Positions 1 to 42,907 of a stretch of 64,000 nt of DNA are shown here, in pieces. The translations under genes were made by a program, and so were the position numbers. This stretch comes from Dehalococcoidia bacterium (GTDB lineage Bacteria; Chloroflexota; Dehalococcoidia; Plut-88900): positions 64,001-128,000 of the forward strand of contig CBDBLV010000003.1 in NCBI GenBank assembly GCA_965207225.1, in the 5' to 3' direction. The notes beneath the pieces were generated by a model. It did no database searches, was not told the DNA's origin, and saw only the letters and a list, made by a program, of their open reading frames with translations. Position 1 is the stretch's first letter. Each line of letters opens with the position of its first letter.

Positions 1-245
1 TGGTAAAAGTGCAATTCCGGCGTCTCCGGAGAGCGCCCTAACTTTAGCACAGCTTCTCCCCAACTTGCATTTTTTACCGTTGACCGGTCGAGGACGTTGC
101 AGCCCCTTTTGTAGCTGAATTAGGGGAATATGACCGGTCTTGGGTATTTCAGGAGCCCGGCGGATGTACAGCTTGTACCGTTTTGCGGCTCCCAGACGGC
201 AGGGAGGGCAGATAGCGTTGCATCGACGCTATCTATGTGCCACGG
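1..245 (-). promoter_or_regulatory. Conserved non-coding block downstream of Replic_Relax (candidate oriT/ori)
   Basis: Reverse complement aligns with ~15776-16003. GACCGGTC palindromes at 82-89 and 132-139; GTAGCTGAAT at 111-120. Confidence 0.5.
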
Positions 246-1975
246 TCATCGCCCCCTTCTATAGGATGCCTCTACAGGACTCTGCCGCATCCGGTGGTAG
301 AGACTGTCCCACTGGTAGGCGCTCAGCCCTGACAGCGCCAGTCGGGGGGAGGACGGCTCCCACAAGGGACGCCAGGACGCCCCCAGTATCCCCCTGGGTG
401 ACAGGACGGGGATGCAGGACACCAGGACGGGCAGCGACATCCGGTGCATCCGGGCGGCGGTATTCACGTAGGTCTCCTCCACTTCCTCGGTGTCTACCAC
501 GAACAGCGTGACGGGGTACGGGGGCAGGTCATCTTTGTGCTCATTCGACCAGTAGTAGTCTTCGTAGGGCTCCAGGCGGGCGATCACTCCCCTAGGGTGG
601 CGGGCGCGAAGCTCGTGCTCGAGGTAGAAGGGCACGGGATGGCCCCCGGCGAGAAGGTGCCCAACGGCGTCGGGGGCGATGGCCGACTGTCCCCAGTTGT
701 AGGCCCGGTCGGACCTGGCGGTGGGGACAAGCCATACAAGCTCACTGTCGGGATCGGAACGGGTCTCAGATGCAAGCTGCGAGAGGAACCAAGTGATGCC
801 GTCCGTGTGCCTCGTCTGCCTCGCCCACGTCTCGATGCGGTGGCCTACGTGCCGGGGGCGGCCCTCTTTGTCGGTGGTGCGCTCCGTGCTCCAGATGCCC
901 CTCGTGGTGGGCAGCTCGGCCCGGTCCCGGTGGGTGACGTAGCGTATGCCCTCGTCGGACAGGGTGTAGCGCACCTCGCCCCGTTTGCCGTGACGTTCCA
1001 CCAGTCCCCAGGTCTTCACAAGGCTGCGCATCATCTGGCTGACGCGTCCCTCGGAGACGCCGAGCCAGGTGGCCAGGTGCTCGCGGGGGATCATCGGGTG
1101 GTCGGTGATCAGGTCCAGCGTCCGCTTCTCCGAAGGGCTGAGGCCGAAGGCGGGTGACCCCCCCACCAGGCGCTCAGGTTGAGGGAGTGAAGCTCGCTTC
1201 CGCTCCGGCGACGCCGTGAGGGATGTTCGTCTTCTCCCCGGCTTGCCCCGGGAGATTACCCGCTCCAGCGTCAGGTACGAACGCCCGGACAGCCCCGTCG
1301 TCTCCTGCCAGACGCGGCGGTTCCGTCTTTCCAGGGCGGTCCTGGACTCCACGGCGATGAAGAAGTCCGTCAGATCGACCCGTTCGCAGAAGCTCCCCGT
1401 CTGCCTCCGCTCCCACACGCTGGGCACCAGGATGAGAATCACGTCGGGGCGGCGGCTGGAGTCGTAGTGCGACAAGGCTCGCAGCCGGTCGTGGAGGGAG
1501 CGCCTGAGCAGGGCCAGGCCCTGGCGGACGATACCTAAGTCTCGCCCATCGTGGAGGGTGATGACGGCGTCGAAGCGGCCCTTGCGGTGAAACTCCACGC
1601 GGGATCGGAGCCCGTCCGTGCCGGGGGACATGGTGGCGGCGAGGCGGTAGACGGAGGCCACCGCGTCCATCCTGCGGATGAGCAGCGTGAGCCACTCCCT
1701 GGACATGGGTAGGCCCGCACGAAGTCCGAGGGCGTGTCGTAGTCCACGAAGTCGGCGGTCTCCCTGATGCCCTGCGGCGTCAGGCAGTATCTTGCGCTCG
1801 ACGGCAGATGCACGGTGCCGTGGGTGGCCTTCCCCACGATGCCGTCGGACAGCAGCTCGGACAGATAGCGGTGGACGGTTGCGTGGGGCTCGCCTAGGAT
1901 GAGCGCCAGATCCGTCGATTCGATGAACGGCATCCGGCTGAGGGCGTCGAGCAACCGTCGGTCTGACAAAGACAT
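246..1975 (-). pseudogene. Replic_Relax (MOB_C-like) protein, copy 1, frameshifted
   Basis: N-terminal wHTH (MSLSDRRLLDALSRMPF, ATG at 1975) is in a different frame from the 486-aa ORF. The DNA reads TACCCATG here versus TACCCCATG in copy 2, a one-C loss near 1707. C-terminal PDA...FYLEHE nuclease-like motif. Confidence 0.75.
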
Positions 1976-2224
1976 GCGTTGAGCGTAACGAGGAAGCGCA
2001 TCGGTGGGCAACCGATACGTGTCAGCGGCGGTGTGGCGACTCTGGCGGGCATTCCACTTAACATCAACGAGGTTTTTCTTCTTCCGACAGGTGGTGGACC
2101 CGGGTACTTTGCAAAACGTTGGTGCAAGGGGTTTTGTAGTAGGACACAGGGCTCTGTGCGGTTGCTGCCAAGTAGTCTCACTGCTATAGTGAGGCTGCCT
2201 TAGTCCTCGTGCCGGAGAAAGGGA

Positions 2225-3100
2225 ATGGAATTCGTAGACAGAATTGTGGAAGGAAATTGCCAGCAGGCCCTTAGGGACGTGCCTGACAATTCGGTTGATC
2301 TTATATTCACTTCGCCGCCTTACGCTGACCAGAGGAAAAGCACCTACGGCGGAATAAAGCCTGACGATTACGTGGAATGGTTTCTTCCCAAGGCTGACCA
2401 ATTCTACCGCGTCCTGAAGCCGTCCGGTACGTTCATCCTCAACATCAAAGAGCGCGTCGTCAATGGAGAGCGTCACACCTACGTGATGGAGTTGGTGCTT
2501 GAGATGCGTAGGCGAGGTTGGCTATGGACTGAAGAGTTCATCTGGCATAAGAAGAACTCATACCCCGGCAAATGGCCCAATCGGTTCAGGGACAACTGGG
2601 AACGCCTTATACAATTCAACAAGCGAAAAGACTTCAACATGTACCAGGAAGAGGTGATGATACCCGTAGGAACCTGGGCAGAGCATCGCCTCTCAAATCT
2701 CAGTGATACAGACCAGATCAGAGACGAATCCAAGGTGGGCAGCGGGTTTGGCAAGAACGTATCCAATTGGCTTGGTCGAGACAAGGTGTATCCCAATAAC
2801 GTCCTCCACATGGCCACTGAGTCTTCAAACAAGAACCACAGTGCCGTCTTTCCCGTTGCGTTGCCCACCTGGTTCATCAAGCTTTTCACCCAACCCGAGG
2901 ACCTAGTGCTGGACCCTTTCCTCGGTTCCGGAAGCACGGCGGTGGCCGCTCTCAACTTGGGCAGACACTTCCTCGGCATCGAAATCAACAGCGAGTACGC
3001 GGAGTTGGCCAGGGAACGGGTGCTAAGGGCGGGGGACGCCATACCCTCGGTCAACGGGGCTGAGATGGCGGATGAGGCAATGCAGGGGGTCGCTGGATGA
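2225..3100 (+). CDS. Beta-class DNA amino-methyltransferase (probably N4-cytosine)
   Basis: Motif IV TSPPY precedes motif I DPFLGSGST; HSAVFP motif present. Confidence 0.92.
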   Translation: MEFVDRIVEGNCQQALRDVPDNSVDLIFTSPPYADQRKSTYGGIKPDDYVEWFLPKADQFYRVLKPSGTFILNIKERVVNGERHTYVMELVLEMRRRGWLWTEEFIWHKKNSYPGKWPNRFRDNWERLIQFNKRKDFNMYQEEVMIPVGTWAEHRLSNLSDTDQIRDESKVGSGFGKNVSNWLGRDKVYPNNVLHMATESSNKNHSAVFPVALPTWFIKLFTQPEDLVLDPFLGSGSTAVAALNLGRHFLGIEINSEYAELARERVLRAGDAIPSVNGAEMADEAMQGVAG

Positions 3101-3858
3101 AATCGCTGGATTTCGACGTTGTGCGGCGGTACGTCAACGAACACATCGGCGTCTTCCATCAGGGGCGACTCGACACCTTGAACAAGCTGGATCTGAAGCG
3201 AGCGCTCCAGAAGAACCCCTATCTGTTCAGGGCCAAAAATGTCTTGACCGCATCGGAGATGATCAACGGCATCATGGATGCGTTCCTGTCCTCCTCCGAA
3301 GAAGAGCGCTTCGGCACATTCCTTGAGGGGCTTGCCGTATTTGTAGCTGAACAGACAACTGGGGGACACAAGTCGGCAGCGTCCGGCATCGACTTGGAGT
3401 TTAGCAACCAAGGCGTCCACTACCTGGTCTCAGTGAAGTCCGGCCCCAATTGGGGTAACGCAGCCCAACAGAATCAATTGGAGCGCGAGTTGAGGGACGG
3501 TGTGGCGAGGCTGCAACAGCGAAGGCCCGGGGCAAATGTACAATCCGTCCTGGGCATATGTTACGGCCGCGTTCGTACGCGATATCTCCGTGGCTACTTG
3601 AAACTAGTTGGACAGAATTTCTGGTATTTCATCAGCGAGAATAAGGACTTGTATACGGAGATCATCGAGCCAATCGGATACCGTGCTAAGGAACACAACG
3701 AGGAATACGAGCGCAGCAAGGCTCAAGTGACCAATCGTTTGACCGCAGCCTTTATCGGGGATTACTGCTATCCCTCCGGCGAAATTGATTGGCCTAAGCT
3801 AGTTTATGCGGCCTGCGGCAACTACGACTTGGATAGATTCTTCGGTCGTTCGAGATAG
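3097..3858 (+). CDS. Type II restriction endonuclease, EcoO109I/PmeII-like
   Basis: ATGA overlap with the MTase; motifs KNPYLF, GIDLEF, SVKSGPNWGN. Confidence 0.8.
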   Translation: MKSLDFDVVRRYVNEHIGVFHQGRLDTLNKLDLKRALQKNPYLFRAKNVLTASEMINGIMDAFLSSSEEERFGTFLEGLAVFVAEQTTGGHKSAASGIDLEFSNQGVHYLVSVKSGPNWGNAAQQNQLERELRDGVARLQQRRPGANVQSVLGICYGRVRTRYLRGYLKLVGQNFWYFISENKDLYTEIIEPIGYRAKEHNEEYERSKAQVTNRLTAAFIGDYCYPSGEIDWPKLVYAACGNYDLDRFFGRSR

Positions 3859-3908
3859 CTGAACACACCCTCGTGAGCATCTAGAGTCCCATCCACAATT
3901 CGAAGATA

Positions 3909-3958
3909 GTTCTGCCTACCGTCAACTCAGGCCCACCAGACTTGATAAAATCAAGAAC
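3909..3958. other. LSR recombination junction J1 (E-left | E-mid)
   Basis: GTTCTGCCTACCGTCAACTCAGGC-CC-ACCAGACTTGATAAAATCAAGAAC: a 50-bp imperfect inverted repeat centred on CC at 3933-3934. Confidence 0.85.
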
Positions 3959-4055
3959 CTTCGCGTTGAAGCTCGTGTTGGACCTGTAGGCTGAGCCTTG
4001 TCCTGTTCCCGTTGAGAGAGGGCCCCCCAAGGAGAGGTGAGGAAAGGCTGGACGT

Positions 4056-6464
4056 TCACATCTCGTCCCGTCCCTCGGTTTCACTCGCCGGCATGCGGTA
4101 GCCTACACGCGGCTCGGTGAAGATGTACTTCGGGACGTTGGCGTCGTCGCCCAGCCTGCGACGCAGGTTTCTCATCGTGGCGCGCAGCAACTGGACAGCG
4201 CGGGTGTATGTTGCTCCCCAGACCTTTTCCAGGATCTGGTCATGAGTCAAAACTCGCCCGGCGCTGATCGAAAGCTCGAAGAGCAGCTTGTACTCGGTCG
4301 GAGACAACTGCGCCCGATGGCCGGCTACAGTCACGGCTCGGTCTGCGTAGTCGATAACCAACTCTCCCAGACGATAGGGCTGACGCCGCGTCGCCTTGCC
4401 AGTTGACCGCCGCTTCCGTAATGAAGCTTCGACTCTCGCAGTTAATTCGGTCGCGGAGAAAGGCTTGACGATATAGTCGTCGGCACCCATTTTGAGAGCC
4501 TTCACAACATTCTCTTCCTGATCGTTCGCGGACAGAAAGATGACCGGCACGTCGGACAACTCGCGGACGCGACGCATCAGTTCGAGCCCGCTGGTCCCCG
4601 GAACCATCAGGTCCATCAAGACCAGGTGAGGATGCTCCAACTCCAGGATATGCATCATCTCATCCGGGTTCCCCGTCCCGAAAGTCGTGTGTCCATGGTC
4701 ATTGAGTATGGTTCGAAGAAGCCGCAAGACTTGAGGCTCGTCGTCCACAGCAAGAATCTTCGTTCCATCATGCGGCGTGATGACTTGAACGTCATTCGCT
4801 GACTTCTGAACGGCGGCCATGGGAATCGTAAAGGTGATCCTGGTCCCCTGTCCCTCTCCACCGCTTTCGGCCAGGATGCGACCTCCATGCGCCTCTACAA
4901 TACCCTTGCAGATCGCGAGCCCCAGGCCCTCTCCCGCGACCCGCTGCTCGCGACCATCGCCCTCAATCCGAGAGAACTTCTTGAACAGATTGGGCAACTC
5001 GTCGGCAGGTATTCCTCTGCCTCCGTCTGTTACGGAGAACGCGACATAAACGTCTTCCCGCGATGCACTCACCCTGATCGTTGTTGAATCTCCTGAGTAC
5101 TTGGATGCGTTGGACAGTAGGTTGTTCAGCACTTGACCGATACGCTGGCTATCCGCCGCGATCTGCGGAAGATCGGGCGGGAGTTCGACTTCGATGGGAT
5201 TCCGTCGCCCTTGGCGAACAAACGCCATTCTCGCCTCGTCGACAATCTCCTCCACATCCGTAGGTTCGAGAGTTACTGACAATGCCCCCGCTTCTATCTG
5301 CGTCATGTCGAGAAGGTTGTTGACGAGGTCGCTCAGATGGTCGGACTGCCCATCTATCATTCGGAAGTACTGGAGCATTTCGGAAATGGTGGGGGGACTG
5401 GATCTAGCCAACACGATGCCAGTACAGCCTTTGATTGTGGTCAGCGGTGTTCGCAACTCATGGCTCACCATGGCGAGGAACTCGCGGCGCAGACGTTCGA
5501 CCTCCTCCACCGGAGTCATATCTTGTACTACGGCAACAGCGGAGACAATCTCCCCGTCATCCGAGTAGATCGGCGTGGCGTTGACGAGAGTGGTCACCTT
5601 ACGCCCATCGGGGAGATCGAACTGGATTTCTTCGGCCCGCACTACTTCGCCGCGGTCCAGCGCCCGGGCCAGGGGGCGCTCGTGGCCTTCGTATTTCTCG
5701 CCATCCGACCGGCGGTAAATCGCCACCTCGTGATAGCGCACGAGTGTGGAGCCGGGCTCCGGCGAGACACCCAGGATGCGTTCTGCCTCTCTGTTGACCG
5801 ACGCGAAGGTCCTTGTCTTGGCATCGACTACCAGGACTCCCACCGGCGAGGAATCCACTAACGCAGCCAACCGACGCCTCTCGGTCTCAACCTGGTCCCT
5901 GGTTTGCAGCTCTTGCTCGTACTTGAGAGCGTTGACTATTGAGATGGCGGCCTGTGACGCGAACATCACGAGGATATCTTCGTCTTCTTCAGAGAACTCC
6001 TTCCCACCTTCCTTCTCGGTAAGGTAGATGTTTCCGACAGGCTCGTCATGGTGGCGGATCGGCACCCCGAGGAAGGACTTCATCGGCGGGTGATTCTCAG
6101 GGAAGCCGGCCGAGCGGGAGTGCTGGCTGAGATCTGCGAGTCGTAACGGCTCTTGTATTTCGTTCAGGTATCCGAGGAGACCCAACCCTTGCGGTGGATC
6201 TCCCAGCCGACTGCGTTCTTCGGGAGTGATGCCAGAGGTGATGAACTCTCGAATTCGTCCAGCGCTGTCGAACACCCCTACCGCGCCATAACGGGCGTTG
6301 GTTAATGAGCAAGCGCCGTCAACGATTTCCTGAAGCACGGCGTCGAAGTCCAGAACCTCGGTGATGCGGCGACCGACCTCGCTCACCCTGGTGAAGCGAG
6401 CACGAAGGGTCTCGATCTCCAGCCTGAGGGCATCGTGCTTCTTCGCGGAACCATCTCGGTTCAT
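4056..6464 (-). CDS. Fused soluble sensor kinase-response regulator (GAF-PAS-HisKA-HATPase-REC-OmpR wHTH)
   Basis: SHELRTPLT H-box, NLLSNASKY N-box, GLGLAI G-box, AVDDEP receiver, KdpE-like C-terminus (YIFTEPRVGYR). No TM segment. Confidence 0.92.
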   Translation of the reverse strand: MNRDGSAKKHDALRLEIETLRARFTRVSEVGRRITEVLDFDAVLQEIVDGACSLTNARYGAVGVFDSAGRIREFITSGITPEERSRLGDPPQGLGLLGYLNEIQEPLRLADLSQHSRSAGFPENHPPMKSFLGVPIRHHDEPVGNIYLTEKEGGKEFSEEDEDILVMFASQAAISIVNALKYEQELQTRDQVETERRRLAALVDSSPVGVLVVDAKTRTFASVNREAERILGVSPEPGSTLVRYHEVAIYRRSDGEKYEGHERPLARALDRGEVVRAEEIQFDLPDGRKVTTLVNATPIYSDDGEIVSAVAVVQDMTPVEEVERLRREFLAMVSHELRTPLTTIKGCTGIVLARSSPPTISEMLQYFRMIDGQSDHLSDLVNNLLDMTQIEAGALSVTLEPTDVEEIVDEARMAFVRQGRRNPIEVELPPDLPQIAADSQRIGQVLNNLLSNASKYSGDSTTIRVSASREDVYVAFSVTDGGRGIPADELPNLFKKFSRIEGDGREQRVAGEGLGLAICKGIVEAHGGRILAESGGEGQGTRITFTIPMAAVQKSANDVQVITPHDGTKILAVDDEPQVLRLLRTILNDHGHTTFGTGNPDEMMHILELEHPHLVLMDLMVPGTSGLELMRRVRELSDVPVIFLSANDQEENVVKALKMGADDYIVKPFSATELTARVEASLRKRRSTGKATRRQPYRLGELVIDYADRAVTVAGHRAQLSPTEYKLLFELSISAGRVLTHDQILEKVWGATYTRAVQLLRATMRNLRRRLGDDANVPKYIFTEPRVGYRMPASETEGRDEM

Positions 6465-6559
6465 GTTGCCACCCGCCAGACAATCTTGAGCAACGAGGGG
6501 ATAAGAATACCGCCCATTGTACCGCAGACGTTGTCAAGGTCTGCTGACCGTCAGAAATC

Positions 6560-6610
6560 TTTGATGGTTCTTTGATGGAAACGGGGCTGTTTTTGATGGG
6601 CATTTGATAC
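6560..6610. promoter_or_regulatory. OmpR/PhoB-type tandem direct-repeat operator
   Basis: TTTGAT(GG) at 6560, 6571, 6592 and 6603 (spacing 11, 21, 11) in a divergent intergenic region. Confidence 0.65.
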
Positions 6611-6655
6611 GAGCCGCCTATGGTGGCCGGTATCACTATCTGTAGGAGGTGTGAG

Positions 6656-11666: not shown

Positions 11667-12131
11667 TCATCGTCCGGCCCCAATTGGTCTCGACCCCCGT
11701 TGCCAATTCTCTTGGCTCTCTTGCACTTGAACATTCTCACCGAGTTCCTCAGAGATGCGCTTCACCCCGGACTCGATCTCGCACGCCCAAATGACCCGCC
11801 ACTTCCATCCAAGACTATCCAGAGCAGAGCGTGCCTGAGCATCCCTTTTCGCATTTCTTTCGATCTTCGTCGTCCAGTAATCCGTGTTGCTCTTGGGCAT
11901 CCTTGATCTCTTGCATCCATGCCAGTGCCAGAAGCACCCATGGACAAACAACGCGACTCGATGGCGAGGGAAGACCAAGTCAGGACAGCCGGGGAGATCA
12001 GCACGGTGGAGTCGAAAGCGATGTCCCGCCCTATGAAGAGCCTTTCTCACTTCCATCTCGGGTCTAGTGTCCCGTGACTTCACCTTGGCCATAATCGCGC
12101 TTCGCTCGCGGCTGTCTATCTGATCGGCCAA
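11667..12131 (-). CDS. vsr: Very short patch repair endonuclease
   Basis: RSAIMAKVKSRDTRPE, LPGCPD, FVHGCFWH and IWACE motifs. Confidence 0.92.
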   Translation of the reverse strand: MADQIDSRERSAIMAKVKSRDTRPEMEVRKALHRAGHRFRLHRADLPGCPDLVFPRHRVALFVHGCFWHWHGCKRSRMPKSNTDYWTTKIERNAKRDAQARSALDSLGWKWRVIWACEIESGVKRISEELGENVQVQESQENWQRGSRPIGAGR

Positions 12132-12143
12132 GAGTTAAGCCCC

Positions 12144-25605: not shown

Positions 25606-25607
25606 CC

Positions 25608-33305: not shown

Positions 33306-36300
33306 ATGATGAGCCGCGCCGCCGGGTTCCGACGCCTGCTCACGTTCCGTACCTTGCTGGCCGTGGCCGCGGTGCTGGCGCTGCTCCTGACCCTGCTCCA
33401 TGCGCAGCAGGCGCAGGCCCAGTCCGGCGGCCTGACGCTCGCCGTGACCGAGCGCAGCGAAAGCAGCCTGACGGTGCAGTGGAGCCAGCTTGAAGACGTG
33501 GTTACCTATACCGTCATCCTCCTCGGGGGTGACGAGTTTTTGGTGCACACCGCCTCACCCGGAGAGGACACCTACGTCTTCACTGGCTTGCAGGCTGACT
33601 TCCAGTACGAGCTGAGCGTCAGCGCCTTCCGCAGCGACGCCAGCAGCGCCGGCGAGGTTCAGATCAGGGCGCGCACACTGCCGCCCATCAAGCCAGAGCC
33701 GACGCCGGTGGTGGAGCCCGAGATCGTCCCCCAAGTAAGCGTGACGGCTGGCCCTGAGGTAACCGAGGGCAGCGACGCCGTATTCACGATAACGGCAGAC
33801 CCGGCGCCTGCCGGTGACATCACTGTGGAGCTGACTATCACTGCCGGCGGCGACGTGATCGGCGACGGAGAGACCGGCCAACGGACCGTGACTGTTCCGG
33901 CCAGCGGATCAGCGACCTACGCCGTGTCCACCGTCGACGATGGCGTGGTCGAATCCCCCGGAACCGTTACGGCGACGCTCGTCTCCGCCGGCGGCGGCTA
34001 CGCCGTCGCGGATACGCCCGGAAACGCGGCGACTGTGACGGTGACCAGCGAAGACTGGCTCCTCCGCACTCCCACGATCAAATTGGTCCAGCCCAGTAGC
34101 ATTACTTCTGAATATGGGCCAACCCTCTTCGGGATGTACGTCCGCCCGGTGTCGACCAAGCCCTTGCTGATCAACGTGAAATTGTCGCAGCAGAACGACT
34201 TCTACGATCCCGCGGATCTGGGGCTGAAGCAGTGGCTGATTCCGGCCGGAGAAGACTACGTGGTGCACGAGATCACTCCGATTGACGACAGCGTGGCCGA
34301 ACCTGACGGCAGCATCACCCTGGAACTGCTGCCGGGAACGGGATACAAGCTGGGGCCGTACAAGTCCGCCACGAAAAGGATCCGAGACGAAGACCTGACC
34401 GAGGAGGAGCGGAAGAATTACACGCCGGAAATCCGGGTCACCGGGACATGGGTCAGCGGGAGACCTCATCAAGAAGGCAGCGATCACCGGTTCAAGTTCG
34501 CGTCGAAAAAATCCCTGTCCAGTCCGCTCCCCATCACCGTGGAGATCAGCCAGATTGGCGATTTCGTGGCGCCGGAACACCTGGGCAAGTACCAGCTGAC
34601 CATTCCCGCCGCTCCTTCCAACGCCTACTTGACTATCCCCACGGTGGACGACCAGGTGGACGAGCCGAACGGCCGAGTGGTGGCGCGGGTTCTGCCCGGC
34701 GACGGCTACGTGGCAGCCCGGTGGCAGGAAAAGGAACACGGGTGGCATGACTACGGCAGCCAGTGGATCCAGGACAATGACGAGGTGGAATTCACCCTCG
34801 CCGCCGGTCCAGACATCAGCGAAGGCGGCGAGGCGGAGTTCACCATCAGCGCCTCGGAGGCGTCGCCAGCCCGGACGGAAACCATCAAGGCCCTCGTCAG
34901 CCAGGGCGGCGACTTCGTGGACGCGCCGGGCGACCTGGGCCTGCGTACCCTCACCATCACCACCGGGCAGTCCGTCACGCTGCGCGTTGCCACCGACGAC
35001 GACGGGACCGATGAAGCCGACGGCTGGGTGAGCCTGTCCATTGAAGGCGCTGCGGCGCAGGTCGCAGTCTCCGACGACGATGGCGGGCAGGTCGCGCAGG
35101 CCGGAGATTGCGTAGCCGATGTCTCCACCAACTGCACGGCCCGCGTTGATGGCAAGGTGGGCGGCGTACTGGATTCCAACCGCGACCAGGACTGGCACGG
35201 CGTCAACCTGACCGCAGGCCGGACCTACTGGATGAAGGCGTGGGGTTTTGAGGCGGGGGTGTACTGCGTATACGACGCCCAGGGCAATTGCGCGCAAGAG
35301 GGCTACTTGGGCCAGGACGTCGTCTTCACGCCGGAGCAAAGCGGAACCTGGTTCATCGGGGTCCGGCCGTCGGGGATGACGGGGGCATGGCCCCCGACTC
35401 CGCCTCAGCACCTCTCACCTGAGTTAGTGGCACTGGAACTGCAAACGAAACCGCTGCCCGAATACGAGAGGGCCTACGTGCTGGAAGTGACCACCGTTAC
35501 CGACGATTACCCCGCCGACGCGACCACCACCGGTCAATTGAGCGCCGACGGCAGCGCGGCCACCGGCCGCAATGAAACCCGCGTGGACGTGGACTGGTTC
35601 CGGGTCATCCTGAGCGCCGGTGCGCAGTATCTTATCTACGCCGATTCGACGCTGACCAAGTCTGGACTGCTGCACCCGCTCCACGCCAGGGTCGAAGGGG
35701 TGTACGACTCCGGCGGCAACCTCGTCGCCAGCGGCGTGGAGTCCCCAATGTTGGCGGCGACTCCGGACGCTCGCATAACTCCGGACGCCGACGGCACTTA
35801 CTACGTCGCCGTCACGGGCAACCGGTACAACTACCGCCTTGACAAAGGTCACCAGCCCCCCCACCCCGATTCCACCAGGTATTCAACCTGCCTGCTGACT
35901 GCTTTCAACTGTTATGACAGTCACTGGAGATTAAGTCTGGGCAACGGGGTTGAATCCTCGGATTGGCACAATGGCGGCGTCCCATACCAACTGTCCGTCG
36001 TCACTGCGGTGGACGACTACGCAGACCACCGGGACACGACCGCCAACGTTGCTGTCGGCGGATCGTTGACCGGGGTCATAGACTACCCGGGCGACGTGGA
36101 CTGGGTCGCGGTCACGCTCCCGCCTGGCAGCCTGTATGAATTCAAGGTTGAGGGTGTTGCCGCCAACGGCAAAGCGACTTTGCCGGATCCCCATTTCACG
36201 GATTTGCTTTACGCGGCGGGTGGGGAGTTCGGTGGCGTCGTGCGCTTCCGTGGTATGCGCAGCGCGGTATGGCGTTGGTCGCAGCATGACGTCGGGAAAC

Positions 36301-39300
36301 CGGTGGATGTCGTAAACACGGACGATATGGGCTGGCACCGGCCCCCTGCGAGCCGCCTGTTCTTCCCCGGTTATGAGAACATCTATTTCATCGGCGTGAC
36401 CTCGGCGGAAAATCGCGAAGGTGTTCTGGATACCGGCGCCTACCGGGTCAGCGTATCCATCGTCCCGCAGGACCCGGAGGGAGACGACAGCTCCACGACC
36501 AGCGCTCTGACCGTTGATGGCGGAGCCGTCGAAGCGCATATCGATTCCGGCGGGGACGTGGATTGGTTCGCCGTCCAGCTCGAGGCCGGCCGCAACTATC
36601 TGCTCGGGGTATCCGTGCAGTGCCCGTACACGAGCTCGTACAGGTGCGCTTATTGGGACAGCGGCTGGGCCGTCCAGGTAAAGCTTGCTGACGCCAACGG
36701 CAAGGAAGTAGGGGTGGGATCGGGATTCAGAGATGCCCATGAAGCCGTTCAAATTGAGGCCTCGGGCACGTACTATCTCGTGGTCAGGACAGGCTTTAAT
36801 TTCCACTGGTCCGGCCAGAAGCTCAAGTACAACGCGTGGGCCAGCCTGCTCCCGGATGATGAGGCGACCGACGACATCCATACCGCCGCCGTGTTGCCGC
36901 CGGCCGTAAAGCAGTCCAAGCAGGGCGAAATCCAGTACCCGGACGACGTTGACTGGTACCGGGTCACGGTGCAGGCCGGCCGGTCCCACACCTTCACGGC
37001 GGTCTATAATCCCGCCCACAGCGTTGCCTACTACGGAGCCCGGATTAGCCCCAGCCACCGGATTGACGGACTGTTTGACTCGACTGGGGCGCCGGTCTAT
37101 GACAACGTCTACTTCTACGATGAGCGGGGGATCAAGCAAGCTTACGCGCACACAAAACGGAGCGGCAGAAGCTGGAGGGAGCTCGTTTTCGAGCCGGATG
37201 CGGACGGCGTCTATTACGTGGCGGTCTCTGGAAGCCTCGGCCCGTACCAGGTGAGACATCGGTCCGCGGTTGCCGCCGCCGTCCCGGTCCTGTCCATCAC
37301 GGCCGACGCAGCGTCGGTCGCCGAGGGCGGCAGCGCGGAGTTCACCCTGACGGCCAACCCTGCCCCCACGTTGGACCTGGCGGTGAGCGTCACGGTGTCG
37401 GCCAGCGGCGACTACGGGGCAACCACGGGGAAGCGGACGGTGACCGTCAGCACGGGCGGGAAGGCCACGCTGACCGTCGCTACCACCGGGGACGACGCCG
37501 ACGAACCCGACGGTTCGGTGACGGCCACGCTGGATACTCCGGCCACCGACGCCGGCTACAAGGTGTCAGCGGCCCAAGGCGCAGCCACGGTCACCGTCTC
37601 CGACGACGACGGACCCGCCCTGCCGGTCATCAGCGTCACCTCCGACGGCGACGTGACCGAGGGCACAGACGCCAGCTTCACAGTGACGGCGAGCCCGGCC
37701 CCCACGTTGGACCTTGCCGTGAGCGTCACGGTGTCGGCCAGCGGCGACTACGGGGCAACCACGGGGAAGCGGACGGTGACCGTCAGCACGGGCGGGAAGG
37801 CCACGCTGACCGTCGCCACCACCGGGGACGACGCCGACGAACCCGACGGTTCGGTGACGGCCACGCTGGATACTCCGGCCACCGACGCCGGCTACAAGGT
37901 GTCAGCGGCCCAGGGCGCAGCCACGGTCACCGTCTCCGACGACGACGGACCCGCCCTGCCGGTGATCAGCGTGACCTCCGACGGCGACGTGACCGAGGGG
38001 GCCGACGCGAGCTTCACGGTGACGGCCAACCCGGCCCCGGACGCGGACCTGGACGTGAGCGTCACGGTCAGCGCCACCGGCGACTACGGGGCGGCCACGG
38101 GGCAGCGGACGGTGACCATCCCGACGGCGGGCTACGCCGCGCTGGCGGTGGCCACCACCGGCGACGACGTTGACGAGACCAACGGCTCGGTGACGGTGAC
38201 GGTGGACCCCGACGCGGACCACGACGACTACCTGGTGTCCACGACCCAGGGGTCGGCCACGGTGGCCGTGGCGGACGACGACGACCCTGCGGGGGCGGAC
38301 TACACCGACTACCAGACGGTGGTCGATATCCTCCTAGAGGTGCGGGACAACCCGCCGAACCCGGCCATGCGCAACAACCCGGCCCACGTGAAGAAGTGGA
38401 ACCGGGTGCTGGCGGCCGTCGGCTACGACAGCGGGGAGTCGGCCATGCCGGCCTCCGAGGTCCACGACAACGCGGCCCAGTGGCCGGACAGCCCCTTCCA
38501 CGCGGCGTCGGTGTACCTGACGAGCCTGGAGCAGCCGCGGGGCCAGGGGCAGCAGCAGACGCCGGAGATCAGCATTGCCGGCGGCACTGGCATCACCGAG
38601 GGCGGCGACGCCGTCTTCACGGTGACGGCCAGCCCGGCCCCAGCGGCGAACCTGGACGTGAGCGTCACGGTGTCCCAGAGCGGCGACTACGGCGCGACCA
38701 CGGGCCAGCGGACGGTGACGGTTTCCACCAGCGGCATCGTCAGCTTCGCCGTGGGCACCACGGATGACAGCGCGGATGAAACCGACGGGTCGGTGACGGC
38801 CACGGTGAATACGGGCGCCGGTTACACGGTGTCGGCGACCCAGGGCGCGGCCACGGTGGCGGTGTCGGACAACGACGACGCCCCCACGCCGGAGGTGAGC
38901 GTCACCGCTGGCAATGGGGTCACCGAGGGCGGCGACGCCGTCTTCACGGTGACGGCCAGCCCGGCGCCGGCGGCGAACCTGGACGTGAGCGTGACGGTGT
39001 CCCAGAGCGGAGACTACGGCGCGACGACGGGCCAGCGCACGGTGACCATACCCACGTCGGGCAGCGTCACCGTAACCATCACAACCACCGACGATACTAC
39101 CGACGAGACCGACGGGTCGGTGACGGCCACGGTGAACGCGGGCAGCGGCTACACGGTGTCCTCGACCCAGGGCGCGGCCACGGTGGCGGTGTCGGACGAC
39201 GACCCTCAGGGGCCGGACCACACCGACTACCAGACGGTGGTGGACATCCTCCTGGAGGTGCGGGACAACCCGCCGAACCCGGCCATGCGCAACAACCCGG

Positions 39301-42300
39301 CCCACGTGAAGAAGTGGAACCGGGTGCTGGCCGCCGTCGGCTACGACAGCGGGGAGTCGGCCATGCCGGCCTCCGAGGTCCACGACAACGCGGCCCGGTG
39401 GCCGGACAGCCCCTTCAAGGCGGCCTCCGACTACCTGAGGAGCCAGGAGAACCAGGGCCAGCAGCAGACGCCGGAGATCAGCATTGCCGGCGGCGCTGGC
39501 ATCACCGAGGGCGGCGACGCCGTCTTCACGGTGACGGCCAGCCCGGCGCCTTCGTCCAACCTGGACGTGAGCGTCACGGTGTCGCAGAGCGGCGACTACG
39601 GCGCGACCACCGGCCAGCGCACGGTGACCATACCCACGTCGGGCAGCGTCACCCTGACCGTTGGCACCACGGACGATACTACTGACGAGACCGACGGGTC
39701 GGTGACCGCAACCGTCAACGCGGGCAGCGGCTACACCGTGTCGTCGTCCCAGGGCGCGGCCACGGTGGCCGTCTCGGACAACGACGACGCCCCCACGCCG
39801 GTGGTGAGCGTCAGCGCTGGCTCCGGCGTCACCGAGGGCGGCGACGCCGTCTTCACGGTGACGGCGAGCCCGGCCCCGGCGTCCAACCTGGACGTGAGCG
39901 TGACGGTGTCCCAGAGCGGCGACTACGGCGCGACGACGGGCCAGCGCACGGTGACCATACCCACGTCGGGCAGCGTCACCCTGACGGTCGGCACCACCGA
40001 CGATACTACTGACGAGACCGACGGGTCGGTGACGGCGACGGTGAATACGGGCAGCGACTACACGGTGTCCTCGTCCCAGGGCGCGGCCACGGTGGCGGTG
40101 TCGGACAACGACGACGCCCCCACGCCGGTGGTGAGCGTCAGCGCTGGCTCCGGCGTCACCGAGGGCGGCTCCGCCGTCTTCACGGTGACGGCCAGTCCGG
40201 CCCCGGCGGCCAACCTGGACGTGAGCGTCACGGTGTCCCAGAGCGGGGACTACGGCGCGACCACGGGCCAGCGGACGGTGACCATACCCACCTCGGGCAG
40301 CGTCACCGTAACCATCACAACCACCGACGATACTACTGACGAGGCCGACGGGTCGGTCACCGCAACCGTCAACGCGGGCAGCGACTACACCGTGTCGTCA
40401 ACCCAGGGCGCGGCCACGGTGGCGGTGTCGGACAACGACGACGCCTCCACGCCGGTGGTGAGCGTCACCGGCGCCGCCGGCGGCACCGAGGGCGAGTCGG
40501 TCACCTTCACGGTGACGGCCAGCCCGGCGCCGGCGGCGGACCTGGCGGTGAGCCTCACGGTCTCCCAGAGCGGCGACTACGGCGCGGCCACGGGCCAGCG
40601 CACGGTGACCGTCCCCACCACGGGCAGCGTCACCTTCACCGTCGGCACCACGGACGACAGTACTGACGAGACCGACGGGTCGGTCACCGCAACGGTGAAC
40701 GCGGGCAGCGGCTACACCGTGTCCTCGTCCCAGGGCGCGGCCACGGTCGGCGTCGCAGACAACGACGACCCGGTCGTTGAGGAGCAGACGGGCTACACGG
40801 TGGACCCGGACGTGATCGCGAAGGTCAGGGAGCTGGCGTCGCAGACGCAGCACGGCACGGCCCACGTGAACCGCTGGAACCGGGTGCTCGTCGCCTTCGG
40901 CGAGCACGACGGCACCGGCGTCACGGGCGGCCCGATGACGGCGGCCGAGGCCCAGGACATGGCGGACAAACACAGCAGCCCCGTGTGGGACGAGGTGGTG
41001 ACCGAGCTGACGGCGCTGGAGGCGGCGTCAGCGCAGACGCCACCGCCGCCCACGCCTGAGGTGAGCGTCACCGCTGGAAGCGGGATAACCGAGGGCGGCG
41101 ACGCCGTCTTCACGGTGACGGCCAGCCCGGCGCCTTCGTCCAATCTGGACGTGAGCGTCACGGTCTCGCAGAGCGGCGACTACGGCGCGACCACGGGCCA
41201 GCGGACGGTGACGATACCCACCACGGGCAGCGTCACCCTCACCGTGGGCACCACGGACGATACTACTGACGAGACCGACGGGTCGGTCACGGCCACGGTG
41301 AACGCGGGCAGCGGCTACACGGTGTCCTCGTCCCAGGGCGCGGCCACGGTGGCGGTGTCCGACAACGACGACGCCCCCACGCCGGTGGTGAGCGTCACCG
41401 CTGGCAGCGGGGTGACCGAGGGCGGGGACGCCGTCTTCACGGTGACGGCCAGCCCGGCGCCGGCGTCCAACCTGGACGTGAGCGTGACGGTCTCCCAGAG
41501 CGGCGACTACGGCGCGACCACGGGCCAGCGCACGGTGACCGTCCCCACCACGGGCAGCGTCACCCTCACAGTCGGCACCACCGACGACAGCGCCGACGAG
41601 ACCGACGGGTCGGTGACGGCCACGGTGAACGCGGGCAGCGGCTACACCGTGTCCTCGACCCAGGGCGCGGCCACGGTCGGCGTGGCCGACAACGACGACG
41701 CCCCCACGCCGGTGGTGAGCGTCACTGCTGGCAGCGGGGTGACCGAGGGTGGGGACGTCGTCTTCACGGTGACGGCCAGCCCGGCCCCGGCGTCCAACCT
41801 GGCGGTGAGCGTCACGGTATCGCAGAGCGGCGACTACGGCGCGACCACAGGCCGGCGCACGGTGACCGTCCCGACTTCGGGCAGCGTCACCCTCACCGTT
41901 GGCACCACCGACGATACTACTGACGAGACCGACGGCTCGGTCATCGCGACGGTGAACGCGGGCAGCGGCTACACGGTGTCCTCGTCCCAGGGCGCGGCCA
42001 CGGTCGGCGTGTCCGACAACGACGACGCCCCCACGCCGGTGGTGAGCGTCACCGCTGGCAGCGGGGTGACCGAGGGCGGGGACGCCGTCTTCACGGTGAC
42101 GGCCATCCCGGCCCCGGCGGCCAACCTGGCGGTGAGCGTCACGGTCTCCCAGAGCGGCGACTACGGCGCGACCACGGGCCACCGCACGGTGACGATACCC
42201 ACCACGGGCAGCGTCACCCTCACCGTGGGCACCACCGACGATACTACTGACGAGACCGACGGGTCGGTGACGGCCACGGTGAACGCGGGCAGCGGCTACA

Positions 42301-42707
42301 CGGTGTCCTCGACCCAGGGCGCGGCCACGGTCGGCGTGGCCGACAACGACGACGCCGCGCCGGAGGTGGAGATTACCGTCACCGTCGAGGCCGCGTCGGC
42401 GGTGGAGGGCGACGTGCTGGAGTTCCGGGTGCGGCTGTCCGAGGCGTCCACCGAGGAGATCAGGATCAGATGGAACACCGCGCCTGCGTACCACCTGCTG
42501 GACGACCGGGCGCACATGACCGACTATCAGTACACGGAGGGTGAGCTGGTGTTCGCGCCGGGGGTGACGGAGCTGACGGCGGAGGTGTGGCTGGAGTACG
42601 ACGACGATGAGGAGCCGGACGAGTACTTCGTGGTGGAGGCGTACCTGCCCGGGACCCTCTACCCGCCCGACGCCGTGGGAACCATGACGATCATAGACGA
42701 CGACTAG
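33306..42707 (+). CDS. Giant secreted adhesin-like protein (FN3, Calx-beta-like repeats, PPC-like domains), 3133 aa
   Basis: Signal peptide ending AQA-Q; FN3 domain; D-DWF/DVDWY PPC-like repeats; DD-DE-DG Ca-binding repeats; terminal Calx-beta. Confidence 0.88.
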   Translation: MMSRAAGFRRLLTFRTLLAVAAVLALLLTLLHAQQAQAQSGGLTLAVTERSESSLTVQWSQLEDVVTYTVILLGGDEFLVHTASPGEDTYVFTGLQADFQYELSVSAFRSDASSAGEVQIRARTLPPIKPEPTPVVEPEIVPQVSVTAGPEVTEGSDAVFTITADPAPAGDITVELTITAGGDVIGDGETGQRTVTVPASGSATYAVSTVDDGVVESPGTVTATLVSAGGGYAVADTPGNAATVTVTSEDWLLRTPTIKLVQPSSITSEYGPTLFGMYVRPVSTKPLLINVKLSQQNDFYDPADLGLKQWLIPAGEDYVVHEITPIDDSVAEPDGSITLELLPGTGYKLGPYKSATKRIRDEDLTEEERKNYTPEIRVTGTWVSGRPHQEGSDHRFKFASKKSLSSPLPITVEISQIGDFVAPEHLGKYQLTIPAAPSNAYLTIPTVDDQVDEPNGRVVARVLPGDGYVAARWQEKEHGWHDYGSQWIQDNDEVEFTLAAGPDISEGGEAEFTISASEASPARTETIKALVSQGGDFVDAPGDLGLRTLTITTGQSVTLRVATDDDGTDEADGWVSLSIEGAAAQVAVSDDDGGQVAQAGDCVADVSTNCTARVDGKVGGVLDSNRDQDWHGVNLTAGRTYWMKAWGFEAGVYCVYDAQGNCAQEGYLGQDVVFTPEQSGTWFIGVRPSGMTGAWPPTPPQHLSPELVALELQTKPLPEYERAYVLEVTTVTDDYPADATTTGQLSADGSAATGRNETRVDVDWFRVILSAGAQYLIYADSTLTKSGLLHPLHARVEGVYDSGGNLVASGVESPMLAATPDARITPDADGTYYVAVTGNRYNYRLDKGHQPPHPDSTRYSTCLLTAFNCYDSHWRLSLGNGVESSDWHNGGVPYQLSVVTAVDDYADHRDTTANVAVGGSLTGVIDYPGDVDWVAVTLPPGSLYEFKVEGVAANGKATLPDPHFTDLLYAAGGEFGGVVRFRGMRSAVWRWSQHDVGKPVDVVNTDDMGWHRPPASRLFFPGYENIYFIGVTSAENREGVLDTGAYRVSVSIVPQDPEGDDSSTTSALTVDGGAVEAHIDSGGDVDWFAVQLEAGRNYLLGVSVQCPYTSSYRCAYWDSGWAVQVKLADANGKEVGVGSGFRDAHEAVQIEASGTYYLVVRTGFNFHWSGQKLKYNAWASLLPDDEATDDIHTAAVLPPAVKQSKQGEIQYPDDVDWYRVTVQAGRSHTFTAVYNPAHSVAYYGARISPSHRIDGLFDSTGAPVYDNVYFYDERGIKQAYAHTKRSGRSWRELVFEPDADGVYYVAVSGSLGPYQVRHRSAVAAAVPVLSITADAASVAEGGSAEFTLTANPAPTLDLAVSVTVSASGDYGATTGKRTVTVSTGGKATLTVATTGDDADEPDGSVTATLDTPATDAGYKVSAAQGAATVTVSDDDGPALPVISVTSDGDVTEGTDASFTVTASPAPTLDLAVSVTVSASGDYGATTGKRTVTVSTGGKATLTVATTGDDADEPDGSVTATLDTPATDAGYKVSAAQGAATVTVSDDDGPALPVISVTSDGDVTEGADASFTVTANPAPDADLDVSVTVSATGDYGAATGQRTVTIPTAGYAALAVATTGDDVDETNGSVTVTVDPDADHDDYLVSTTQGSATVAVADDDDPAGADYTDYQTVVDILLEVRDNPPNPAMRNNPAHVKKWNRVLAAVGYDSGESAMPASEVHDNAAQWPDSPFHAASVYLTSLEQPRGQGQQQTPEISIAGGTGITEGGDAVFTVTASPAPAANLDVSVTVSQSGDYGATTGQRTVTVSTSGIVSFAVGTTDDSADETDGSVTATVNTGAGYTVSATQGAATVAVSDNDDAPTPEVSVTAGNGVTEGGDAVFTVTASPAPAANLDVSVTVSQSGDYGATTGQRTVTIPTSGSVTVTITTTDDTTDETDGSVTATVNAGSGYTVSSTQGAATVAVSDDDPQGPDHTDYQTVVDILLEVRDNPPNPAMRNNPAHVKKWNRVLAAVGYDSGESAMPASEVHDNAARWPDSPFKAASDYLRSQENQGQQQTPEISIAGGAGITEGGDAVFTVTASPAPSSNLDVSVTVSQSGDYGATTGQRTVTIPTSGSVTLTVGTTDDTTDETDGSVTATVNAGSGYTVSSSQGAATVAVSDNDDAPTPVVSVSAGSGVTEGGDAVFTVTASPAPASNLDVSVTVSQSGDYGATTGQRTVTIPTSGSVTLTVGTTDDTTDETDGSVTATVNTGSDYTVSSSQGAATVAVSDNDDAPTPVVSVSAGSGVTEGGSAVFTVTASPAPAANLDVSVTVSQSGDYGATTGQRTVTIPTSGSVTVTITTTDDTTDEADGSVTATVNAGSDYTVSSTQGAATVAVSDNDDASTPVVSVTGAAGGTEGESVTFTVTASPAPAADLAVSLTVSQSGDYGAATGQRTVTVPTTGSVTFTVGTTDDSTDETDGSVTATVNAGSGYTVSSSQGAATVGVADNDDPVVEEQTGYTVDPDVIAKVRELASQTQHGTAHVNRWNRVLVAFGEHDGTGVTGGPMTAAEAQDMADKHSSPVWDEVVTELTALEAASAQTPPPPTPEVSVTAGSGITEGGDAVFTVTASPAPSSNLDVSVTVSQSGDYGATTGQRTVTIPTTGSVTLTVGTTDDTTDETDGSVTATVNAGSGYTVSSSQGAATVAVSDNDDAPTPVVSVTAGSGVTEGGDAVFTVTASPAPASNLDVSVTVSQSGDYGATTGQRTVTVPTTGSVTLTVGTTDDSADETDGSVTATVNAGSGYTVSSTQGAATVGVADNDDAPTPVVSVTAGSGVTEGGDVVFTVTASPAPASNLAVSVTVSQSGDYGATTGRRTVTVPTSGSVTLTVGTTDDTTDETDGSVIATVNAGSGYTVSSSQGAATVGVSDNDDAPTPVVSVTAGSGVTEGGDAVFTVTAIPAPAANLAVSVTVSQSGDYGATTGHRTVTIPTTGSVTLTVGTTDDTTDETDGSVTATVNAGSGYTVSSTQGAATVGVADNDDAAPEVEITVTVEAASAVEGDVLEFRVRLSEASTEEIRIRWNTAPAYHLLDDRAHMTDYQYTEGELVFAPGVTELTAEVWLEYDDDEEPDEYFVVEAYLPGTLYPPDAVGTMTIIDDD
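37280..42355 (+). repeat. 13 intragenic ~327-bp (109-aa) tandem units with three helical inserts
   Basis: Period 327 bp (e.g. 39781 and 40108); units counted from the translation; boundaries approximate. Confidence 0.88.
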
Positions 42708-42735
42708 TCCGGCCCGGCCGGACCGGCAAGAGGAT

Positions 42736-42774
42736 GCAAGGGGGGCCTGCGGCAATGTCGCAGGCCCCCCTTGC
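42736..42774 (+). terminator. GC-rich hairpin after the adhesin
   Basis: GCAAGGGGGGCCTGCG-gcaatgt-CGCAGGCCCCCCTTGC; no U-tract. Confidence 0.65.
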
Positions 42775-42863
42775 GCTGGCCGTGGGGCGGCTAGGTAATA
42801 TACTAACGTGGGTGTCAGGATCGCCGGAGTGAAGTTGGATCACCCATCCACAATTCGAAAATG

Positions 42864-42907
42864 GTTCTGCCTATCGTCAACTCAGGCCCACCATCCAGGA
42901 CAAGAAC
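42864..42907. other. LSR junction J3 (E-right | host-side half-site)
   Basis: GTTCTGCCTATCGTCAACTCAGGC-CC-ACCATCCAGGACAAGAAC; the right-arm AGAAC is 6 bp closer to the core than in J1 and J2. Confidence 0.8.

Follow-up and report, generated by a model that had tools for sequence, protein, structure and literature searches.

In the ssrA islands of Dehalococcoides the 3′ end of the gene for the serine recombinase DsiB overlaps the attachment (att) site; the islands occur in tandem with swappable cargo, carry no conjugation genes and have been proposed to be integrative mobilisable elements (IMEs) (McMurdie et al. 2011, PMC3146451). Here we describe a related arrangement in a Dehalococcoidia genome, within a window of 64,000 nucleotides that comprises positions 64001-128000 of contig CBDBLV010000003.1 (C3). 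Positions 1-42907 of the window are read, with a probability of about 0.85, as the distal section of a long series of IMEs in tandem, each having been integrated at the CC of a tRNA gene end by a large serine recombinase (LSR) of its own. Three elements, E-left, E-mid and E-right, lie in this part, each with a Replic_Relax gene (PF13814); LSR1 is the integrase of E-mid and LSR2 that of E-right, and elements of the LSR1 class, the LSR2 class and a third class are abbreviated E1, E2 and E3. The closest described system is the Dehalococcoides ssrA islands, and new here are the targeting of multiple tRNA genes, the MOBC-type module, a clade of reversed polarity and conjugative siblings.

Like the ssrA islands, in which a CcrB-like LSR lies on the reverse strand next to attL with its stop codon outside the island, the elements here come from the same bacterial class, use the 3′ end of a tRNA-like gene as target and lie in tandem downstream of it (PMC3146451, in the portions of that description cited here). 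An integrase overlapping attL is, however, true only of the LSR2 clade, the LSR1 clade being reversed and overlapping attR. The target also differs, with ordinary tRNA genes of at least five amino-acid types used in place of ssrA, and the tmRNA of the source genome (C1:198772-199125) has no family integrase beside it. A relative (G025) has an LSR overlapping the tmRNA antisense, in a DsiB-like arrangement, that is 33% identical to LSR2 over residues 19-331. Where the ssrA islands carry a DsiB-DsiA-RecF-like-ParB-Mom module, the elements here have the Replic_Relax/MOBC gene with small helix-turn-helix (HTH) open reading frames (ORFs), and the ORF scan detected no small serine recombinase and no ParBc or Mom domain. 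The second clade with reversed polarity and the type IV secretion system (T4SS) genes of siblings are further differences.

Other systems share single aspects of this design. Streptococcal IME_Class_8, with two elements, combines a serine integrase, a Rel_PF13814/MobC relaxase and a VirD4 coupling protein (Coluzzi et al. 2017, PMC5357655). It is alike in pairing a serine integrase with a PF13814 relaxase in a compact mobilisable element and differs in belonging to Firmicutes and in possessing VirD4, since E-left (visible part), E-mid and E-right are without a coupling protein; tandem arrays and tRNA targets do not appear in the part of the IME_Class_8 account drawn on here. The tycheposons of Prochlorococcus are likewise modular cargo elements at tRNA genes with tandem junctions, but they belong to another phylum, use tyrosine recombinases (910 of 937), carry primase/helicase replication modules and, in the description as cited, have no MOBC-type gene (Hackl et al. 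2020, 10.1101/2020.12.28.424599). SCCmec cassettes carry cargo and can stack in tandem (PMC11470126). The elements here resemble these CcrA/CcrB systems in being cargo-carrying and stackable and in that the best curated family match of LSR1 is CcrB (E 1.9e-49, below the family cut-off). SCC elements employ two recombinases, target rlmH/orfX, and are not known to carry a relaxase or to target tRNA genes. A literature search, with supplements outside its scope, found no description of an LSR1/LSR2 family of tRNA-end islands, and the word 'tRNA' is absent from the main text of Durrant et al. 2022 (PMC10083194). The preliminary description, made from the letters of the window alone, had called the family possibly undescribed: its overall design is known from the cited portions of the ssrA-island and PF13814 IME accounts (PMC3146451; PMC5357655), whereas its targets, modules and polarity differ from them.

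Junctions, tRNA target and extent of the array

The elements, junctions and integrase genes of the window are as follows.

1-3934, minus strand: E-left, the right-hand 3.9 kb of a 9-kb element (C3:58975-67933)
3909-3932: tail arm A of E-left
3934-22850, plus strand: E-mid, 18.9-kb element of the LSR1 (co-directional) class
22851-42888, minus strand: E-right, 20-kb element of the LSR2 (anti-directional) class
42864-42887: tail arm A of E-right
3909-3958, plus strand: J1, hybrid site A.CC.B, central CC at 3933-3934, both arms of attP type (GTTCT/AGAAC at N19)
22826-22875, plus strand: J2, hybrid site B'.CC.A', central CC at 22850-22851, within the antisense overlap of the LSR1 and LSR2 genes
42864-42913, plus strand: J3, attR-type site A.CC.c, central CC at 42888-42889, right arm with AGAAC at N13, the spacing of an attB half-site
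21284-22948, plus strand: LSR1, 554 aa as integrated, Resolvase, Recombinase and Zn_ribbon_recom domains (Pfam)
22501-24456, minus strand: LSR2, 651 aa as integrated beside E-mid (Pfam)
60011-60086, plus strand: tRNA-Ala(ggc), ending in CCACCA, a free site of the type used by the family

The core GCCCACCA stands on the plus strand at 3931, 22848 and 42886, that is at J1, J2 and J3. As a bare 8-mer it is unremarkable (7 matches in the window against 4.16 expected), whereas the 50-nt site GTTCT-N19-CC-N19-AGAAC occurs twice, at J1 and J2, against 0.01 expected, with two or more copies in 0 of 100 shuffles. The source genome, a 5-contig metagenome-assembled genome (MAG) of 4.03 Mb with 8.3% contamination, contains 15 copies of this site, every one of them at an element junction. 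Written as arms, the junctions read A.CC.B, B'.CC.A' and A.CC.c, which bounds E-mid by B arms and E-right by A arms. The left arm of J3 equals that of J1 over ~50 nt; its right arm has AGAAC after N13, compared with N19 in J1 and J2. When attP sites are rebuilt from these arms, with the crossover position deduced from site symmetry, E-mid yields a 12-bp perfect inverted repeat GGTTCTTGATTT and E-right inverted arms that agree at 15 of 17 positions, both more symmetric than the junctions as found. The preliminary description had reported this symmetry, a common core with GTTCT...AGAAC ends and three LSR plus Replic_Relax elements oriented -, +, -. All are upheld here, the last by Pfam gene calls, with the one amendment that the right arm of J3 has N13 spacing. 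Tandem accretion of such elements at one att core is in turn borne out by the junction arms, the gene calls and the junctions of the wider array.

The core corresponds to the acceptor-stem end, discriminator A and encoded CCA of tRNA genes (..CC|ACCA). At other loci of the genome the ends of LSR2-type genes meet 3′ tRNA halves in antisense, and six elements adjoin intact tRNAs (Ile-gat, Ala-tgc, Lys-ctt, Val-tac, Val-gac and Met-cat); in all six the side facing the tRNA has GTTCG-N13-CC and the opposite side an attP-type arm. The T-loop GTTCG thus lies 13 bp from the central CC in tRNAs, and the GTTCT of the element arms at 19 bp. The motif contacted by the zinc-ribbon domain (ZD) of serine integrases is 5 bp nearer the centre in attB than in attP (Rutherford et al., PMC3783163, as cited here), and the 6-bp shift of the outer motif seen here fits this attB/attP model. 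By the same shift the right arm of J3 is a chromosomal half-site; its orthologous flank in a relative (G001) has CGAAC at N13 and is likewise occupied. Eleven of the 49 tRNAs of the genome end in CCACCA, six of them occupied and five free. LSR2 copies 92-95% identical to that of the window stand at four different tRNAs, which argues for specificity towards a type of tRNA end and not towards a single gene. The orthologue of tRNA-Ala(tgc), occupied in this genome, has no integrase within the examined flank in five congeners.

Beyond the left edge of the window, where the preliminary description had placed a minus-strand LSR2-like gene, such a gene is present (C3:58629-60569, 92% identity) with a B'.CC.A' junction at C3:58975, so that E-left is a complete element of 9 kb. 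The ~20 kb first given as element size therefore suits E-mid (18.9 kb) and E-right (20 kb) but not E-left. Similarly, the stack of three exists within the window, but the array as a whole fills C3:1-106888 with at least seven elements (junctions at C3:11518, 24845, 58975, 67933, 86850 and 106888), and the contig starts inside another element. The locus had been termed a hotspot; this holds as accretion at one att core, with the qualification that the type of locus is a tRNA-type attB and the stack runs far beyond three elements. The end of C1, where an LSR2 gene follows tRNA-Ala-tgc, was considered as the head of the array and is unsupported, as the two flanks lie at 2.19 Mb and 0.006 Mb in relative G008, which puts the C1 end 2.19 Mb from the J3 flank. 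Genome-wide there are 33 family integrases and 30 Replic_Relax genes (>350 matched residues). Further arrays have the orders tRNA-Met-E2-E3-E1-E2-E1 (78 kb), tRNA-Val-E2-E1 and tRNA-Val-E3-E1, and all arrays sum to roughly 0.5 Mb of the 4.03 Mb, the limits of two being uncertain.

The family is widespread among relatives. A scan of reference genomes with LSR2 recovered 273 relatives, of which the best 80 were kept, all from Dehalococcoidia or Chloroflexota MAGs. These 80 loci adjoin a tRNA gene in 29 cases (Ala 11, Ile 7, Val 4, Met 4, Lys 3), converge on an LSR1-type gene in 26 and on a third integrase type in 2, and are other or undetermined in 23. The E1 tail arm was present in at least 80 further stretches; the 81 sites among the matches listed comprise 15 intact tRNAs, 6 tRNA-like arms, 11 A arms, 4 D arms, 1 B' arm, 2 other GTTCT/GTTCG left arms and 42 others. 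Insertion of E1 solely into the ends of E2 and E3 was entertained: it is true of this genome, where E1 occupies 0 of 6 tRNA-adjacent sites, and refuted by the 15 of 81 tail arms at intact tRNAs elsewhere. Pairs of LSR and Replic_Relax genes, as first noted in the window, are common in other Dehalococcoidia genomes. For the LSR1 gene (21347-22007), the summed depth of contigs at least 90% alike in runs X3-X6 is 5595-16785, as against ~7-40 for unique E-mid cargo; family integrase genes thus seem very numerous in the community, contig depth not being copy number.

Integrase clades and a proposed course of insertion

LSR1 and LSR2 both have the serine-integrase domain order of resolvase catalytic domain, recombinase domain and zinc beta-ribbon (LSR1: PF00239 2.9e-32, PF07508 3.9e-24, PF13408 3.7e-15; LSR2: PF00239 3.1e-33, PF07508 5.8e-21, PF13408 6.7e-11). 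The att site occupies the final codons of each integrase gene, and the C-terminal tail accordingly varies with the state of integration. The last 10 codons of LSR1 before the crossover encode the B' arm and its frame crosses J2 into E-right, giving 554 aa as integrated and a predicted 540 aa for the circular element. LSR2 has 651 aa beside E-mid, a predicted 559 aa on the circle and 544-568 aa next to tRNAs.

The two clades differ in polarity. Read in the direction of the gene, the centre of the site is CC in LSR1-type genes (11/12 own copies, 21/21 copies from other genomes) and GG in LSR2-type genes (15/15 and 72/81, respectively); the remaining nine LSR2-type copies comprise two that read CC, three that fit both patterns and four that fit neither. 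The LSR1 clade therefore reads the same way as the tRNA and the LSR2 clade the opposite way, which accounts for the alternating orientation of elements in the window. It also means that stacked elements of the two clades face each other, their integrase genes overlapping antisense across the junction. An inversion of the core, which is short and asymmetric and is flanked by near-palindromic arms, may be the origin of the polarity switch.

Three integrase loci outside the window stand apart from the common pattern. A truncated integrase gene on the plus strand (G000:C2:150888-152111), 69% identical to LSR2, ends in an A-type arm followed by CC ACCA, so combining LSR1-like polarity with an LSR2-like gene; an E1 tail adjoins this gene. 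Where the tRNA-Met array ends, away from its tRNA (G000:C5:1988772-1990643), the core is altered to CC AGTGAG from CC ACCA, and the LSR1-type frame extends 1072 aa, entering a region that gives a weak match to an FtsK-type P-loop. A class relative (L207, G037:C1:1196510-1200574) has a distant serine recombinase with a 476-aa frame and 26% identity to LSR2 just upstream of a convergent tRNA-Asn; from this locus, the design of an integrase facing a tRNA end may be wider than the LSR1/LSR2 family.

From these arrangements we infer a course of insertion in which each LSR would insert its own element at the CC formed by the last two acceptor-stem bases of a tRNA gene. The hybrid sites left by each integration would retain the CC together with one or more usable arms, and later elements would insert beside the first, this accretion producing the P-P hybrid junctions J1 and J2 with the attR-type J3 at the far end.

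A different history would make the convergent LSR1/LSR2 pair a composite unit, E1 and E2 having fused once by an attP-attP event and then moved or been inherited together, so that the stacks would record few co-integrate events. The tail-to-tail overlapping pair does recur, seven times in this genome (B.A junctions) and at 26 of the 80 LSR2 loci elsewhere; the 19 element-element junctions are all heterotypic (A.B 7, B.A 7, D.B 3, A.D 1, B.p 1), and in this genome E1 is next to a tRNA at none of the six tRNA-adjacent sites. Such a unit is nonetheless unlikely, given that both classes stand alone at tRNAs elsewhere (LSR2 at 29/80 loci, the E1 tail arm at 15/81 of those listed) and that partners vary, E1 following E2 tails seven times and E3 tails three times. 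Modules are, moreover, mosaic between copies, and a co-integrate would be without an intact attP for integration.

A serine integrase is usually described as specific for a single target gene, and it is the tyrosine integrases that classically use tRNA genes; the present family of serine integrases uses the ends of many different tRNA genes. As the site layout fits the structural attB/attP recognition model, the recognition rule is testable with short synthetic sites. We tentatively suggest, at a little less than even odds, a general rule. The integrases would read features common to many tRNAs (the T-loop GTTCG as outer motif and the ..CC-A-CCA end), any tRNA that starts with GG and encodes CCA would be usable by near-identical enzymes, each insertion would rebuild the tRNA and leave a usable site, and clades of opposite polarity would give mixed stacks that are never homotypic. 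If this is true, mixed stacks may be protected from collapse by recombination and, together with conjugative siblings, would constitute an open-ended gene-accretion system that amounts to about one tenth of the genome and extends across a whole group of uncultured Dehalococcoidia.

The Replic_Relax module and proposed mobilisation

The Replic_Relax genes and their surroundings are the following, the E-mid backbone being defined by comparison with seven other E1 copies in the genome.

14207-17067 and 21273-22850: E-mid backbone, comprising RR1, the non-coding block and two small ORFs, plus LSR1
14294-15775, plus strand: RR1, Replic_Relax protein of E-mid (PF13814), 493 aa (Pfam E 1.7e-9)
15776-16305: conserved non-coding block of E-mid
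16306-16743, plus strand: ORF145, no family, backbone
16721-17170, plus strand: ORF149, weak excisionase-type HTH, coiled coil, hydrophobic tail, backbone
246-1706, minus strand: Replic_Relax gene of E-left (Pfam)
27007-29046, minus strand: RR2, Replic_Relax gene of E-right (Pfam)
29047-30012: non-coding block of E-right, upstream of RR2, with a 23-nt hairpin at 29626-29675

PF13814 scores above its 25.3-bit cut-off in all three elements (48.4, 38.4 and 34.2 bits) and is treated as a MOBC relaxase family in the cited part of PMC5357655. RR1 has 834 relatives at E <=0.001 among cluster representatives, and its residues D351, E368 and E370 are nearly invariant (>=90%) in a 30-sequence alignment. 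To judge from the alignment, these residues would match the DEE metal motif reported for MOBC relaxases, which resemble restriction enzymes (PMC6736028, citing Francia 2013, in the part used here). The structure model of RR1 (pLDDT 87) predicts a nuclease-like N domain, a central winged helix (Z ~10 to MarR proteins) and a nuclease-like C domain carrying D351/E368/E370; residues 13-174 match PaqCI (Z 8.4), and residues 203-469 match Cdn1 (Z 8.4) and VC1899 (Z 8.3). A Foldseek search against the PDB matched the winged helix only, with no hit at E <=0.001. The MOBC relaxases TraX (pAD1) and MobC (CloDF13) are themselves related to PD-(D/E)XK restriction enzymes (PMC6736028, citing Francia et al. 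2013). The putative relaxases here resemble them in the PF13814 match, the nearly invariant D...ExE residues, the middling nuclease-like fold matches and, in siblings, the neighbouring coupling-protein gene. They differ in being longer (493-679 aa) and in their predicted extra N-terminal nuclease-like domain and central winged helix, TraX being compared by description only.

The E-mid non-coding block contains four GACCGGTCA palindrome cores (at 15865, 15915, 16007 and 16236) and is kept in E-left (window 1-237 against 15767-16003, 84%) and in five of the seven other E1 copies; it is a candidate oriT or operator. A gene order common to both complete elements had been proposed and is found, except that the non-coding block lies upstream of the Replic_Relax gene in E-right and downstream of it in E-mid.

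A domain scan of 30 ORFs in window positions 1-45330 detected no T4SS, coupling-protein, capsid, primase, polymerase or terminase domain, and so agrees with the first impression that the window is free of T4SS, coupling-protein, capsid and primase genes. Across the genome PF02534 and PF03135 gave no match; PF12696, PF12846 and PF10412 do match, so that the former two negatives depended on the model chosen. TraG-D_C is found in 12 ORFs of ~850-1030 aa, each beside a Replic_Relax gene in sibling elements, and AAA_10 (VirB4-like) in seven ORFs of 344-794 aa, six of them ~750-800 aa. The sibling at tRNA-Ile (C1:177753 onward) combines an LSR2-type integrase, a Replic_Relax gene, a TrwB/TraG-type coupling protein (843 aa), a TraC/VirB4-like ATPase (787 aa) and a TrbL-like protein just below cut-off, and within the window's own array a Replic_Relax gene and a coupling-protein-like gene are present in the element at C3:24845. 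Since the window elements are without transfer genes and the siblings possess coupling-protein and VirB4-like genes, the most fitting reading of the former is that of mobilisable relatives of the latter. They contain an integrase, a PF13814 gene and att bounds, and their relaxase function and oriT are putative. The elements would most likely excise as circles, be nicked at the non-coding block and be mobilised by the conjugative siblings of the same genome. Cargo such as restriction-modification (R-M) systems, a sensor kinase, a leucine-rich repeat (LRR) protein and a giant repeat protein is exchanged between copies.

The preliminary description had named mobilisable and replicative elements as options, and mobilisable is the better supported because siblings pair the Replic_Relax-type gene with a coupling protein. 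Were the elements instead replicative, as integrating plasmids or phage-packaged satellites, Replic_Relax would start replication and not conjugative transfer. This would suit the name of the Pfam family (replication-relaxation), the want of a coupling-protein or T4SS gene in the window elements, the UvrD/helicase IV-like helicase of E-mid and the repeated palindrome of the non-coding block, which could represent iterons. We consider it improbable, however, because Replic_Relax stands beside a coupling-protein gene in the 12 siblings, the usual arrangement of a relaxase, and because PF13814 is treated as the MOBC relaxase family (PMC5357655, cited part). The 30 ORFs scanned include no polymerase, primase, capsid or terminase domain, and only three of the seven other E1 copies have the helicase.

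The family builds arrays of at least 100 kb and takes up roughly 0.5 Mb of the 4.0-Mb genome. It extends the 2011 Dehalococcoides ssrA-island model to a broader system with mobilisable and conjugative members. As the family carries R-M and other accessory genes, it is probably a main route by which genes move in uncultured Dehalococcoidia from soil and sponges.

Several observations weigh against a mobilisable array built by serial insertion. Among the assembled contigs of four runs from one sample, which form the read-level evidence, there is no excised circle or restored site, and no listed contig bridges J1 or J2. One contig of one run (X4, depth 12.8) joins 22843 back to 3940 via 13 other letters with the core reversed; its source could be another strain in which an E1-like attP has flipped polarity. 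J1 and J2 are of attP type on both arms, a pairing for which canonical serine integrases need a directionality factor (PMC3783163, cited part), so that use of hybrid sites is an assumption. ORF149 is a candidate directionality factor, and its HTH_17 (E 3e-4) and TIGR01764 (E 1.7e-3) matches are both below curated cut-offs. Neither motif nor BLAST searches recovered the A.CC.B junction that should lie between C3:24845 and 58975, and the tRNA at the head of the array, which runs off the start of C3, was not found. The empty allele of the J3 locus that the preliminary description suggested looking for is missing from 40 relatives, of which G001 is occupied and G008 diverges 215 nt past J3. As to the relaxase, the nuclease fold matches of RR1 are of middling strength, and the Replic_Relax protein had no match in PDB sequence or NCBIfam searches.

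Least probable by far is a stack misjoined in the MAG from repeated integrase and Replic_Relax modules: the assembly is a contaminated draft of five contigs (8.3%) with three contig ends inside such arrays and J1 and J2 unspanned by the listed contigs of the four runs, but every junction shows the arm combination expected from reciprocal exchange at CC, the same junction types recur in many independent assemblies, single-contig chromosomes included, and unique cargo stretches lie on single contigs with 0-1 differences in four runs.

Cargo, module exchange and flanking DNA

The remaining features of the three elements are listed here.

1535-2476, minus strand: E-left winged HTH (wHTH) ORF (Pfam)
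2225-3100, plus strand: E-left N6_N4 methylase of a type II R-M system (Pfam)
3097-3858, plus strand: E-left EcoO109I-like endonuclease of the same type II R-M system (Pfam)
3934-14207: E-mid cargo region, from comparison with the seven other E1 copies
4056-6464, minus strand: E-mid hybrid histidine kinase (Pfam)
~8722-9588: E-mid IS5-family insertion, DUF4096 ORF 8822-9190 and DDE ORF 9205-9573
9838-11112: E-mid LRR protein (Pfam)
12144-13100, minus strand: E-mid DUF4928 (Pfam)
13097-14167, minus strand: E-mid C5 methylase (Pfam)
17181-19859: E-mid UvrD/helicase IV-like, optional block
20037-20885: E-mid SIMPL, optional block
20886-21224: E-mid antitoxin-like, optional block
24487-25863, minus strand: E-right periplasmic binding protein (Pfam)
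26233-26958, minus strand: E-right ORF241
30013-30564, minus strand: E-right ORF183
31234-32103, plus strand: E-right ORF289
32309-33067, plus strand: E-right Uma2 (Pfam)
33306-42707, plus strand: E-right repeat protein, 3133 aa

Comparison of copies points to exchange of modules. Over positions 9588-14208 E-mid has 98% identity with another copy, against 91-93% between the two backbones, so that modules are exchanged between copies, and the helicase-SIMPL-antitoxin block (17181-21266) is present in three of the seven other E1 copies. E-left mixes an LSR2-type integrase and A arms with a Replic_Relax module 85-87% identical to that of E-mid, window positions 1-2050 matching the latter at 85-86% in inverted orientation. 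The modules of E-right are shared mosaically with other copies, and only the integrase is common to all E2 and E3 copies. Cargo, which comprises two R-M pairs among other genes, has ~54-57% GC, compared with 63-65% in the backbones. The 3133-aa ORF has 70-72% GC and 13 tandem repeats of ~327 nt (~109 aa), 60-93% identical to a reference copy, and matches fn3 once and Calx-beta weakly; two other E2 copies carry related genes in their cargo.

The ORFs of the IS5-family element in E-mid are apparently split by a frameshift, and the paralogue at C5:1973012-1990338 is without the insertion. A contig present in all four runs joins 8719 to 9588 and is probably that paralogue.

To the right of J3, positions 43171-43660 translate as the C-terminal end of a tyrosine integrase (read from the translation), preceded by a piece that has 92% identity with tRNA-Ser(tga) at its 3′ end and in the region downstream. 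The two flank pieces recur beside three tRNA-Ser genes of the genome and in congeners. These features suggest that an island of another kind left its remnant as the chromosomal flank of the stack. Further out, and outside the stack, a minus-strand ORF of 487 aa at 43867-45330 encodes an ABC-type ATPase with an AAA_21/AbiEii-type match that may be part of a defence system.

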